A stretch of DNA of 64,000 nt from Parachlamydiales bacterium (GCA_963705295.1 OY970065.1:448001-512000); one strand, 5' to 3'; numbered from the stretch's first letter, positions 39,735 to 42,677 are shown. Numbers and translations: made by a program. Notes: generated from the letters alone by a model not told the origin.

Positions 39735-42677
39735 TTATTGAAACCTAGCCCATTTGAAATCGATGAGGGTGTGGTTGGGCTCTAAGAGTAGGTATTTCTT
39801 TTTCATGAATTGTAGGCAGGTTTCGAAAAGAGGGATGATCGGCATTTCATCGATCAAGATTTGCTCGATACGGATGAGGAGCTCGATTTGCTTTCCTTTT
39901 TCCGTTTCGAGCTGGGCCTCATGCAGCAGGGCTTGCAGGTCAGGATGCGACCATTTGCTGAAATTCATAGGCTCTTCCGGATTGGCAAAGAAATTCAAGG
40001 TGTAGAAAGGGTCGTTGACCCACGGTTGCCAACGGATGAGGGCGATTTGAAAGTCACCGGTTGTCAGTTTGGAGAAGATCGTTTTATAATCGTATCCTTG
40101 GATGGTGGTCGAAATTCCCAATTTTTTTTCCCATTCCGATGATAAAAACTCAGCCGCTGCTTTTCCGAAGACCGTTCGTTGGGTAAACCCAATATTGAGG
40201 GAGGAGAGGGGGATCCCTAACTCTTCGAGACCCTCGGATAAGAGTTTTTGAGCATTTCCTGTTTTGAAAAGAGAAGGATTAGGGGTTTGGCAATGGGATG
40301 TCGGAAGGGGGGAGTAGGCTGGTTTTTTTGGATATTTTAGATTTTCTAAGAGTTGCAGACGATCGATTGCCAAGGCGAGAGCTTTTCGGATTTTATTATT
40401 TTTAAGAATAGGATGGCGCGTATTGCAAACACACCAGTAGAGACCGTGGTCAGGATGAACCATCACTTCATCATCTTCTGTAGGAGTGTAACTATTATTC
40501 CAAGCTCCAAGAGGAGCACCCAGCCATTGAATTTTGTTTTGATAAAACATCTCTTCCGTCTGAGAGTGGTGGCTCGCCGTGATTAAAATCCGGTCCAAAT
40601 GGATGCGTGATATTTCCCAATAATGGGGATTTTTCACAAAGACATAACTGCTATCTCTCTGATTATATTCGATTTTAAAAGGGCCATTACAGACGTAATG
40701 GTTCCCTTCTTCGAAAGGCCAATTCGGTTCATTGATGTCAATTTGGCGGCAAACAGGGGAGAAGAGTGGATGGGCAAGATATTCAAGAAAATTGAGGGAA
40801 GGCGATTCTAATTCTATTTTTAAAGTTAAATCGTCTAAGGCATGAATTCCGAGCTGGTTCATCGCGGCAGCTCCCTTCTTGACGGCTTCGGCATTTTTGA
40901 TGATATAAAAGAGGTAGGCAAAAGCCGTATTGAAACGGGGGGAGACGATTTTTTTCCAAGCGTACTCAAAATCGTAACTGGTGAGAGGTTCTCCGTTAGA
41001 CCAAACGGTGGGACGGAGCCGGAAAAGATAGGTTTTTCGGTCTTCAGAAATCTCCACTTCGTGGGCAATTCCGTTCTCAAGAGACCCTTTCGAACTAATC
41101 CGCATGAGCCCTTCAAAGAGCATCTTTAAAACAAGGGCAGAAACGCCGTCTCCTCCAATTCTCGGATCTAGAGAGCTGACGGGATTTTCTAGGCCGAGGC
41201 GCAAAACTTGAGTTTTTTTAACTTCGTCCCGCCAATAAATCAGCAATTTATCGAGAGACTCGATGAAAAGATTCTGTAGGTGGCTTGTTTCTGTCTCGAG
41301 AAGGTAACCGACAAGATAAGAGTCGTTGAGGGTGAGGGCGATGGAAGCTTTTTTAACTTCGGGTAAATCGAAGGATAAAAGATGGTCTTTGGCTATTTCA
41401 TAAAAAGGGCCGTGCGGGATGCGGAGCATCACGATAAAAAGGTGATCTTTTCTCGAGCTTTTTAGGATATATTGAAAAGAATCGAGTAGAGGCAATTCCG
41501 AAATGTGCAAAAACAGCTGCAGCATGGTTTTTAAAATAGGGAGAGGAAGAATCGCTTGCATCTCGATAGGCGTGATCGAATAAAAGACATTTTCGATCAG
41601 CTCAGGAGAGAGCCCAGGAAGGGCATTTTTAAGAGTGTGCAACGTCTCTTCTTGTTTGATTAGAATGCCGCCATTGAAATCTCGAAATTCGCCGATATTC
41701 TCCTTCAAATAATTCCCTATTTTTTGCCGGGCAGCAAAAAAGTTTAAGGAACCGTCGCTCCTCAAGATGGTGGGATGAGGTGTTAGAAGAATTTTGAAAA
41801 TATAAGCAAAAATAGGTTGATGATCTTTCAGGTATTTCACCAATTGTTTTCTCTCTAGAATGAATTGAGAGAACGAACTCCGTTGTTTGATGAGATTGTC
41901 TACAGAAGCTGTCTCATGATTCTCGACTCGGACACAAATCGCCGTGAAGACAAAATCTTCCGCCGTTTGCATATCAAAAGAGATCATGATCTGGGGGAGG
42001 TCGGTGCTCTGATCGATTTCTTGGCTCAACGTTAAAATGTTGCGCAAGACCTCTTCTTGATTCCGAGTCATAAATACAGCCGGAACGACCCGTTCGATGC
42101 GGGAGAGGAGCTCTTCCTCGAGCCCCAGTTTCAATTTTTTGATCTCAGATAGAGTAAAGTACTGGCTACTGTTTTTTTCGAATTCGACATAGAGGGTCTT
42201 GATCCGATCTTCAGCGCCTTGAAAGGTATAAATGGACCCTTTGACAATTTTTAGATCGGGTAAGAATTTTTGGACAGCCTTCAAAAGTTGTTCCTGATCG
42301 AAGAGTTCATACCGATTCAGATAGATCTGGACTAAAATGCCCACGACCCATTTTGAACCAAATGGAAATTCTAATTGCGTCGGCAAGATTCTCAGGGATA
42401 AATAACGGGTTTTAGGTGAAAGAGAGACGAGACTGAGCAATTTCTTCTTTTTGAAATATTGAGAAGAAAGGAGACGGAAAAGATGGTCAGCCGATCTTTT
42501 CTGAGTGAAATCGTGATCAAAGTAGGCAATCAGCCGATCCCGTTCCTTGAAAATGGTCCGATCCAAAAGTTGAGGGAAGCGATCGATCAATTCTTGAAGC
42601 TTCTGATCTAAAATTGTTAATTTGTTTACTTCCACAGGTAAAACGTATTCTAGCGAACGGTTCATTTTCTCCAACAA
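39735..42677 (-). CDS. Signal-less fusion: ~490-aa unknown N-terminal region plus OppA-like SBP5 domain
   Basis: No signal peptide, lipobox or TM seen. The C-half has SLDPRIG, LFEGL, WSNGEPL, CNGPF and RKALALAIDR. The N-half aligns with 61011->64000. Start is TTG 42677 or ATG 42665. Confidence 0.88.
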   Translation of the reverse strand: MLEKMNRSLEYVLPVEVNKLTILDQKLQELIDRFPQLLDRTIFKERDRLIAYFDHDFTQKRSADHLFRLLSSQYFKKKKLLSLVSLSPKTRYLSLRILPTQLEFPFGSKWVVGILVQIYLNRYELFDQEQLLKAVQKFLPDLKIVKGSIYTFQGAEDRIKTLYVEFEKNSSQYFTLSEIKKLKLGLEEELLSRIERVVPAVFMTRNQEEVLRNILTLSQEIDQSTDLPQIMISFDMQTAEDFVFTAICVRVENHETASVDNLIKQRSSFSQFILERKQLVKYLKDHQPIFAYIFKILLTPHPTILRSDGSLNFFAARQKIGNYLKENIGEFRDFNGGILIKQEETLHTLKNALPGLSPELIENVFYSITPIEMQAILPLPILKTMLQLFLHISELPLLDSFQYILKSSRKDHLFIVMLRIPHGPFYEIAKDHLLSFDLPEVKKASIALTLNDSYLVGYLLETETSHLQNLFIESLDKLLIYWRDEVKKTQVLRLGLENPVSSLDPRIGGDGVSALVLKMLFEGLMRISSKGSLENGIAHEVEISEDRKTYLFRLRPTVWSNGEPLTSYDFEYAWKKIVSPRFNTAFAYLFYIIKNAEAVKKGAAAMNQLGIHALDDLTLKIELESPSLNFLEYLAHPLFSPVCRQIDINEPNWPFEEGNHYVCNGPFKIEYNQRDSSYVFVKNPHYWEISRIHLDRILITASHHSQTEEMFYQNKIQWLGAPLGAWNNSYTPTEDDEVMVHPDHGLYWCVCNTRHPILKNNKIRKALALAIDRLQLLENLKYPKKPAYSPLPTSHCQTPNPSLFKTGNAQKLLSEGLEELGIPLSSLNIGFTQRTVFGKAAAEFLSSEWEKKLGISTTIQGYDYKTIFSKLTTGDFQIALIRWQPWVNDPFYTLNFFANPEEPMNFSKWSHPDLQALLHEAQLETEKGKQIELLIRIEQILIDEMPIIPLFETCLQFMKKKYLLLEPNHTLIDFKWARFQ

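Follow-up and report, generated by a model that had tools for sequence, protein, structure and literature searches.

An array of probable ACT-like modules restricted to Chlamydiota, fused to a leaderless OppA-type domain and paralogous to a putative aspartate kinase regulator

Background

What is a complete OppA-type binding domain doing in a protein that carries no export signal, and what are the 490 residues that precede it? Both questions are raised by a gene at 39735..42677 (minus strand) of a 64,000-nucleotide stretch of DNA from a Parachlamydiales bacterium (GCA_963705295.1 OY970065.1:448001-512000), which we call the window and which is part of a single-contig 2.13-Mb genome. The gene, a 980-aa open reading frame (ORF) with a TTG start, ends in a substrate-binding protein (SBP) domain of the family SBP_bac_5 (SBP5). 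The database version of its product (P0004) is 976 aa long, with the start 4 codons later, and the closest database relatives are labelled Rhabdochlamydiaceae. The sources call such fusions 'peptide ABC transporter substrate-binding protein' or leave them unnamed; it is the C-terminal half that leads to their being mislabelled as exported SBPs. An initial annotation, made from the window's sequence alone, had described a conserved N-terminal region of ~490 aa joined to SBP5, had likened it to the tandem ACT-like domains of GlnD or of large NAD-glutamate dehydrogenase (GDH), and had set it apart from the cytoplasmic SBP5 sensor SgrR. The predicted structures examined here make it very probable that residues 1-490 are an array of ACT-like modules, and the distribution and gene order of the family point to a sensor that would act inside the cell.

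A conserved region joined to a leaderless SBP5 domain

The description of a conserved ~490-aa region joined to SBP5 was borne out. No sequence in Pfam, NCBIfam or the PDB corresponds to residues 1-490: on the whole fusion protein Pfam finds SBP_bac_5 only (residues 534-900, E 1.1e-57), NCBIfam only SBP or OppA-like models that begin at residue ~486, and a phmmer search of PDB sequences with residues 1-500 returns 0 matches at E<=10. A profile search of the PDB with the N-terminal region produced only designed repeat proteins and patched, which we judged to be spurious. The region is present three times in the genome. A whole-genome tblastn search with residues 1-500 recovers a second fusion copy (35.8% identity over 483 aa, E 3e-83) and a third copy, without SBP5, at genome positions 2002437-2003597 (34.7% over 392 aa, E 1.5e-58); judged by sequence comparison, the similarity among the three lies far beyond chance. 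All seven motifs to which the initial annotation had drawn attention, FPFG, LYVE(F/I)EK, EEV(L/M)(R/K)NI, D(L/I)PQ, RxDxSxNF, GE(F/V)RD(F/Y)NGG and ENxFYSITPIEMQAILP, are found in both fusion copies. Among 75 homologs, most are 968-1163 aa long and contain PF00496, and six of 582-702 aa are without it.

The C-terminal half (residues 491-980; 39735..41207, minus strand) is a complete OppA-type, cluster C SBP_bac_5 domain, spanning positions 3-363 of the 368 in the PF00496 profile and including both lobes. Its closest solved structures are those of Bacillus subtilis OppA (8are, E 5.4e-83, with an alignment that covers residues 3-462 of the domain), DppE (8ay0, E 3.2e-59) and Escherichia coli MppA (3o9p, E 7.8e-45). 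In each of the genome's three non-fused SBP5 paralogs the sequence opens with a hydrophobic leader that runs up to a lipobox Cys, and directly downstream of the fusion gene there is an exported SBP5 lipoprotein of 536 aa (38078..39688, minus strand; PF00496 E 1.5e-73) whose leader ends ...LTAC. Unlike the three lipoproteins, the fusion has no signal peptide, lipobox or transmembrane helix, as had been claimed: its N-terminus is polar and the highest mean Kyte-Doolittle hydropathy of any 19-residue segment is 1.45. Because it has neither leader nor transmembrane segment, and because the available text on SgrR and DsvR gives precedents for an SBP_bac_5 domain as a cytoplasmic sensor, we infer that the fusion protein stays in the cytoplasm.

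In peptide-binding SBP5 proteins the Asp of the conserved motif W..D..DP holds the amino terminus of the bound peptide. An altered peptide pocket specific to the fusions was considered and rejected, because the replacement of this Asp by Trp is present in exported chlamydial SBP5 paralogs as well and so is not a feature of the fusions. The motif reads W.SW..DP in most chlamydial SBP5 members, fused or exported.

Predicted fold of the N-terminal region

We modelled residues 1-490 with AlphaFold2 (AF2) from a 56-member family alignment, obtaining a mean predicted local distance difference test score (pLDDT) of 84.3, and we also modelled the genome's stand-alone paralog (pLDDT 91.0). DSSP assigns three modules of bbabba topology (beta-beta-alpha twice over) to the first model and four to the second, and helical linkers join the modules in the model of residues 1-490. 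This order is the swapped form of babbab, the ferredoxin-like arrangement of the ACT superfamily, in which a four-stranded sheet carries two helices on one side. The parts of the fusion's N-terminal region, all encoded on the minus strand, follow one another in this order. A helical lead (residues 1-87; 42417..42677), with predicted helices at 2-33, 42-52, 55-60 and 63-86 and its first 13 residues disordered, stands in for the helical motif that follows the extra first module (module 0) of the stand-alone and long-fusion forms. Module 1 (residues 88-195; 42093..42416) holds the invariant residues E124, Y163 and E165 (LYVEFEK strand). Next come an RNEEE helix and module 2 (residues 205-330; 41688..42065), with invariant N206, E208, E209, D226, P228, R306 and R317, and then the GExRDxNGG loop with a helical linker (residues 329-397; 41487..41693), with invariant R332, D333, N335, G336, G337, E344 and P370. 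Module 3 (residues 398-490; 41208..41486), also bbabba, is the least conserved in sequence and gives ferredoxin-like and ACT-like structural matches at Z 5-6.

Structure searches with these models supported the suggested likeness to the tandem ACT-like domains of large GDH, both through the repeated bbabba modules and through the identity of the top matches. In Foldseek the best PDB match of the model of residues 1-490 is the N-terminal region of the 180-kDa GDH of Mycobacterium smegmatis (7jsr_B, E 9.2e-9, prob 1.00, 525 columns), with a TM-score of only 0.20, as would be expected if the modules are arranged differently from those of large GDH. VIA-align places the same model on 7jsr_A at Z 8.8, and a search of 48,161 representative chains, independent of Foldseek, returned 7a1d_A alone at Z>=8. 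The stand-alone paralog behaves in the same way: 7jsr is its best Foldseek match (E 2.4e-9, prob 1.00, 726 columns), and VIA-align lays model residues 1-441 on residues 1-611 of 7jsr_A at Z 8.9.

Single modules tell the same story. Superpositions on 7a1d_A from both models reach Z 8.1-8.3, with a root-mean-square deviation (rmsd) of 3.4-3.6 over 107-110 aa (VIA-align). Module 2 (model residues 210-329) fits the ACT*3 region of large GDH (residues 500-610) at Z 8.1 and rmsd 3.6 over 110 aa, and in the 48,161-chain search module 1 (model residues 69-192) fits chain residues 500-611 of 7a1d_A, also at Z 8.1. Module 1 in addition matches the ACT-like domain of maize R (9c7o, Z 6.2, model residues 92-190; VIA-align). 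The most canonical module is module 0 of the stand-alone form, which VIA-align matches to the GL3 and R ACT-like domains (9c7n and 9c7o; Z 8.4, rmsd 2.4-2.5), the ACT domain of PurU (3n0v, Z 7.8), that of SerB2 (Z 6.2-6.5) and GcvR-like ACT domains (Z 6-7). A protein-language-model look-up gave GDH_ACT1, HM1, ACT3 and GDH_2nd as the nearest named clusters, at sub-threshold scores of 0.75-0.86 that serve as leads only.

According to the available text of a preprint on large GDH (bioRxiv 10.1101/2020.11.14.381715), that enzyme carries three helical motifs and a PAS domain besides three ACT* domains, whose topology is bbabba; aspartate kinases show this variant of the ACT fold as well; and the N-terminal region is proposed to be a flexible metabolic sensor and oligomer interface. 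The chlamydial array resembles large GDH (L-GDH180; 7jsr, 7a1d; GDH_ACT1-3 and GDH_HM1-3) in having tandem ACT* modules that alternate with helical motifs. It differs in showing no detectable sequence kinship, in that no PAS domain is seen in our models, and in what it is attached to: it occurs on SBP5, alone, or on aspartate kinase, and we found no GDH catalytic domain on any form of the family.

Distribution and phylogeny

A profile built from the N-terminal region recovers 911 representative clusters at E<=1e-3 and 650 at E<=1e-30; a second homolog search, with profile A1, gained no reach over the first. Of 300 scored Chlamydiota genomes 265 carry the family, as do 156 of 165 genera. One family-level group, f4, has the array in none of its 29 genomes, which are 1.0-1.2 Mb in size; from these sizes we infer that f4 is Chlamydiaceae. 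The N-terminal region is a real and conserved domain array, restricted to Chlamydiota.

For gene order and architecture we used 80 loci from named genome records, belonging to Chlamydiota or to metagenome-assembled genomes labelled Verrucomicrobia or uncultured. Of these, 26 hold stand-alone genes (~590-760 aa); the fusions number 30 long (~1150-1200 aa) and 20 short ones (~970-1016 aa), and contig ends truncate the other 4. Relative to the short form, to which the window's gene belongs, the stand-alone and long forms have ~180 additional N-terminal residues. The second fusion copy in the window, with its extra N-terminal ACT module, is a long fusion (61011..64000, plus strand) that is cut by the window end and measures 1139 aa in the genome. 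One further record, P0222 (1666 aa), has, on a single polypeptide, the array and after it two SBP_bac_5 stretches, and appears to be a fusion gene merged with a neighbouring SBP5 gene in that record.

A tree of the shared core (a quick maximum-likelihood search with midpoint root) separates 27 stand-alone rows from 56 fusion rows by a branch with a Shimodaira-Hasegawa-like approximate likelihood ratio test (SH-aLRT) support of 100, and places all 21 short fusions, including one locus cut by a contig end, in a single clade (99). This topology fits a history in which the array was duplicated once and fused to SBP5 once, the lineage of the window's gene losing the first module afterwards. It also bears on whether the two halves of the fusion might be separate genes in related genomes, an outcome that would have spoken against the initial annotation: the form without SBP5 is a separate paralogous clade and not a split version of the fusion. 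The stand-alone gene is the older form of the family, and the array of the fusions seems to derive from a copy of the regulator that partners the chlamydial aspartate kinase.

The stand-alone form and aspartate kinase

In the source genome the stand-alone, four-module array (L001:6219-7955, minus strand) adjoins an aspartate kinase gene (L001:7952-8713, minus strand), whose stop codon it overlaps by 4 bp; the translationally coupled pair lies at C1:2002218-2004712. The kinase, of 253 aa, owes its name to NCBIfam and aligns only to positions ~4-243 of the ~407-aa models, which identifies it as a catalytic domain from which the ACT domains are missing. The genome, with two AA_kinase genes in all, encodes no other aspartate kinase; we assume that the second AA_kinase, of 242 aa, is UMP kinase.

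This arrangement is general among stand-alone loci. By tblastn, 21 of 26 stand-alone genes have a short kinase of ~257-287 aa directly upstream (clustering gives 20 of 26), and in at least 6 clusters kinase and array are joined in one chain. One of them, P0212 (825 aa), has AA_kinase at residues 3-228 and the array at 365-819; five further clusters match its kinase-plus-first-module region with 95-100% coverage and 39-89% identity, and one of these five bears the source name 'Aspartokinase [Chlamydiae bacterium]'. Given a gene order in which it stands directly behind a kinase lacking ACT domains, and given the gene fusions, the stand-alone array would serve the aspartate kinase of chlamydiae as its regulatory part, a role read from gene sequences and their arrangement. 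A prediction of the complex between the stand-alone paralog and the aspartate kinase, run without controls, gave ipSAE values of 0.00 and 0.00 and speaks neither for nor against binding.

The canonical ACT domain of aspartate kinases, PF22468, exceeds its cut-off in 14 of 14 control genomes but in only 2 of the 151 from Chlamydiota. We had considered whether PF22468 and the new array have complementary distributions and dropped the idea, as PF22468 is also missing from f4 (0 of 27 genomes), which lacks the array; no claim is therefore made about the kinase of that group. Compared with the ACT domains or beta subunit of LysC, the stand-alone array occupies the same position in gene order, as the next gene or fused, and has an ACT-type fold. 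It differs in having four modules over ~580-700 aa, where LysC has two ACT domains over ~160 aa, and in the absence of any credible profile match between them (below). The window's gene stands further off, being a paralog that is unlinked to the kinase gene and bears SBP5.

Other genes near the stand-alone paralog encode two ankyrin-repeat proteins (L001:2674-4560, minus strand, and L001:4700-6202, plus strand) and, beside the aspartate kinase, an AbiEi/AbiEii toxin-antitoxin pair (L001:8797-10280, plus strand).

Genes beside the fusions

The fusion gene of the window is flanked, divergently, by a small gene for a 122-aa SH2-like protein (42763..43131, plus strand; SH2 at 22.9 bits against a cut-off of 21), which lies 2 bp upstream of a gene for a MATE-family transporter (43134..44468, plus strand; MatE E 5.2e-14, with TIGR00797 below its cut-off). 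Another MATE gene (59566..61014, plus strand; MatE E 1.3e-20) stands directly upstream of the second fusion copy, whose start overlaps its stop by 4 bp. Both associations recur: in the 50 fusion loci an SH2-like gene of ~120 aa adjoins the fusion gene 40 times, and a MATE gene lies within 5 kb 28 times, in several arrangements. Order and strand vary from clade to clade: MATE and the small gene may point away from the fusion (as in the window), run with it or be convergent; in 5 loci fusion, SH2-like and MATE genes follow one another on the same strand, with intergenic distances of -48 to +37 bp, mostly of a few bp. Linkage that outlives rearrangement argues for a functional tie, but the related genomes are not independent of one another. 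The adjacency of SH2-like and fusion genes was also seen, by comparison of coordinates, in a separate genome sample.

Of 150 Chlamydiota genomes, 28 carry the SH2-like family, whose genes nearly always adjoin the fusion gene and frequently stand in 2-3 tandem copies (for example in L041, L063 and G135). Eleven of the family's 40 members match PF00017 at E<=0.01, the best at 5.1e-6, and its alignment shows the pattern W..G...AE.LL / FTYLLR / H..F.I. At the FLVR position 29 of the 40, including the window's protein, have Arg, and the other 11 have Ser, Cys, His or Thr; the conserved Arg of the FLVR motif is the phosphotyrosine-binding residue of the SH2 domain. A bacterial SH2-like domain in a cluster that otherwise looks like housekeeping is unusual.

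No ABC permease or ATPase gene is among the neighbour clusters that occur in >=10 of the 80 loci. An extra exported SBP5 gene is found near the fusion gene in 28 of the 50 fusion loci. Around the long fusions, a D-Ala-D-Ala ligase gene is near in 10 of 30 loci and a class I/II aminotransferase gene in 10 of 30, the ligase often standing directly upstream of the fusion and the aminotransferase 2-3 kb beyond (as in L026, L027, L028, L029, L034, L037, L040, L046, L049 and L063). Just downstream of the second copy in the source genome there is a 971-aa penicillin-binding protein (L002:6584-9499, minus strand). Together, the ligase, aminotransferase and penicillin-binding protein neighbours make a connection with peptidoglycan or muropeptides possible.

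Further genes were noted nearby. A Fic-domain protein (L002:10496-11329, plus strand) is encoded near the second copy. A few kb from the window's fusion gene, all on the minus strand, are three genes of eukaryote-like or otherwise unusual character, for a homolog of ubiquitin C-terminal hydrolase (UCH; 30263..31522), a protein with BTB and leucine-rich repeats (33394..35295) and a protein of 664 aa that matches the HicA toxin over its final 55 residues (28268..30262). A 963-aa ORF (P0002; window 56246..59137, minus strand) has no Pfam match at E<=0.001 and is rich in charged low-complexity stretches.

Proposed function

The residues that the family has kept are a natural starting point for asking what the array does. 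In the 56-sequence alignment 19 columns are invariant and 29 nearly so, most of them charged or Gly. Although fusions and stand-alone forms share only ~30% identity, E124, Y163, E165, N206, E208, E209, D226, P228, R306, R317, R332, D333, N335, G336, G337 and E344 are invariant in both alike, and the motifs of the GExRDxNGG loop, common to both, are the most conserved of the family. Placed on the secondary structure of the model, the invariant residues would fall in the last strand of module 1, around module 2 and in the loop after module 2.

On balance we lean towards regarding the fusion as a cytoplasmic sensor of metabolites and peptides with two sensing parts. A duplicate of the array would have been joined, apparently once, to an OppA-type domain that had lost its lipoprotein leader, and the short form, that of the window's gene, would have arisen later with the loss of the first module as well. 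A small metabolite might bind the ACT-like modules, the modules might mediate oligomerisation, or both, with the invariant residues of RNEEE, DLPQ, RxDxS and GExRDxNGG marking the site, while a peptide or peptide-like ligand would enter the cleft of the SBP5 domain. The resulting change of shape or of oligomer state would be relayed to a partner protein, for which the best candidates may be the SH2-like protein and the MATE transporter, or aspartate kinase itself.

Several results pull in the other direction, some of them at the level of the fold and others at that of function. Pfam scans assign no ACT family to the N-terminal region even at E<=1, and GDH_ACT1 (PF21075) is found in 0 of 150 Chlamydiota genomes, the source genome included, the control being positive in Caulobacter. 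When the modules are compared with each other, or with ACT1 and ACT2 of 64 canonical aspartate kinases, hhalign probabilities stay below 7% (controls 99.8-100%), so that sequence establishes neither internal duplication nor homology to the ACT domains of aspartate kinase. The structural scores are middling (Z ~8-9, TM 0.15-0.20); with predicted TM-scores (pTM) of 0.46 for residues 1-490 and 0.54 for the stand-alone paralog the mutual arrangement of the modules is uncertain; and the module closest to true ACT domains, the first, is missing from the short form. As to function, there is no kinase gene among the neighbours of the fusion genes (0 of 50 fusion loci), and since the linkage to kinase is confined to the stand-alone clade, a kinase-related role for the window's gene is an extrapolation from its paralogs. 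Finally, the abundance of invariant acidic and basic residues would suit a catalytic site too.

A more ambitious version of the sensor reading, which we think unlikely though worth stating, casts the fusion as a receptor in the cytoplasm that works with the SH2-like and MATE proteins as a system of three parts. The SBP domain would catch a peptide or muropeptide inside the cell and gate or feed the exporter, and the array, derived from the regulator of aspartate kinase, would tie in aspartate or diaminopimelate status. We know of no precedent for an SBP-dependent or SBP-gated MATE exporter, nor for a housekeeping bacterial SH2.

The array might instead be a mere scaffold that brings SBP5 domains or kinase subunits together and binds no ligand, sensing being left to the SBP5 cleft. 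The poor conservation of its third module would agree with this, and in large GDH the ACT*2 and ACT*3 domains form contacts between subunits, according to the available text of the preprint cited above (10.1101/2020.11.14.381715). Interfaces, however, rarely require 19 invariant and mostly charged residues, clustered in one module and its flanking loops and equal across different types of partner, and the same source has ACT-ACT interfaces of known enzymes doubling as effector sites; a scaffold without ligand is thus improbable.

Slightly less probable still is a cryptic enzyme. Its active site would consist of E124, Y163, E165, N206, E208, E209, D226, R306, R317, R332, D333 and N335, with SBP5 supplying a peptide substrate for, e.g., ligation, modification or hydrolysis, and the MATE transporter exporting the product. 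That 19 invariant and 29 nearly invariant columns persist at so low an overall identity is what makes the idea attractive, and the MATE protein's closest NCBIfam models do include exporters of modified peptides, weakly (WgkD, E 9.5e-6). Ranks 2-4 of the fold search are lipoate or octanoyl-protein ligase-type domains (2qht, Z 7.3; 3a7u, Z 7.2; 6jom, Z 6.7), with BirA-type domains at Z 5.2-5.8, but these score below large GDH and within the range that the tool commonly returns by chance, and they span ~110 residues of a single module, with the RDxNGG loop at the edge of the alignment. Pfam, NCBIfam and PDB sequence searches give no enzyme match, and a regulator better fits a stand-alone form that occupies the position of the aspartate kinase ACT domains and is sometimes fused to the kinase.

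It is very improbable that the fusion leaves the cell without a Sec signal, for instance by type III secretion into the host, with the N-terminal region acting in secretion, chaperone binding or targeting and the SH2-like protein as a co-secreted effector or chaperone: SH2 is a eukaryotic signalling domain whose known bacterial examples, in the available text of Kaneko et al. 2018 (PMC6208348), come from Legionella, the window holds the eukaryote-like UCH and BTB plus leucine-rich-repeat genes, and the model begins with 13 disordered residues, but the family's core member is coupled to a biosynthetic kinase of the housekeeping kind, in some cases within one chain, presence in so many genera is a pattern of core metabolism unlike that of effectors, the linked MATE gene encodes an inner-membrane transporter and not secretion machinery, and a type III chaperone role for the SH2-like protein was rejected, its isoelectric points (4.8-9.6, median 6.7) not being uniformly acidic like those of class I chaperones.

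The two-part cytoplasmic sensor that we prefer has a known parallel in SgrR and DsvR. Like the fusion, these use, as far as the available text describes them, a leaderless SBP_bac_5 domain inside the cell, C-terminal to an output or regulatory part. Theirs is a winged-helix DNA-binding domain, whereas here it is ~490 aa of ACT-like modules, and the SBP5 part of the fusion is closest to the peptide binders OppA, DppE and MppA. The contrast with SgrR that the initial annotation had drawn is upheld in both respects, the N-terminal region being larger and showing no helix-turn-helix in Pfam scans or in the models. With the OppA and MppA lipoproteins the fusion shares, by sequence, the full two-lobe cluster C SBP fold, and such paralogs adjoin the fusion gene; it differs from them in having neither signal peptide nor lipobox and in carrying 490 aa of cytoplasmic-type array before SBP5.

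Conclusions

Arrays of ACT-like domains and cytoplasmic SBP5 sensors are already known; as far as these searches show, their combination is new, as are its apparent origin from a regulator of aspartate kinase and its linkage to SH2-like and MATE genes. In open-access papers and preprints we found no description of the family, of chlamydial aspartate kinases lacking ACT domains, or of chlamydial SH2-like proteins. The available text of the Legionella SH2 paper (PMC6208348) does not mention chlamydiae, and in that of a Chlamydiales pangenome paper the sole mention of aspartokinase is a row in a table.

A large unannotated family, with 911 clusters and a presence in nearly all sampled chlamydiae outside Chlamydiaceae, thereby gains a predicted fold and a testable role. 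These observations suggest that environmental chlamydiae regulate the first step of diaminopimelate and lysine synthesis through a detached, four-module ACT-like subunit, and not through the usual two ACT domains, and that this regulator was put to further use on an OppA domain inside the cell, in company with an SH2-like protein and a MATE transporter. Should the linkage be functional, these obligate intracellular bacteria, which live on host-derived peptides, would be coupling the sensing of peptides with amino-acid status and export in a new way.

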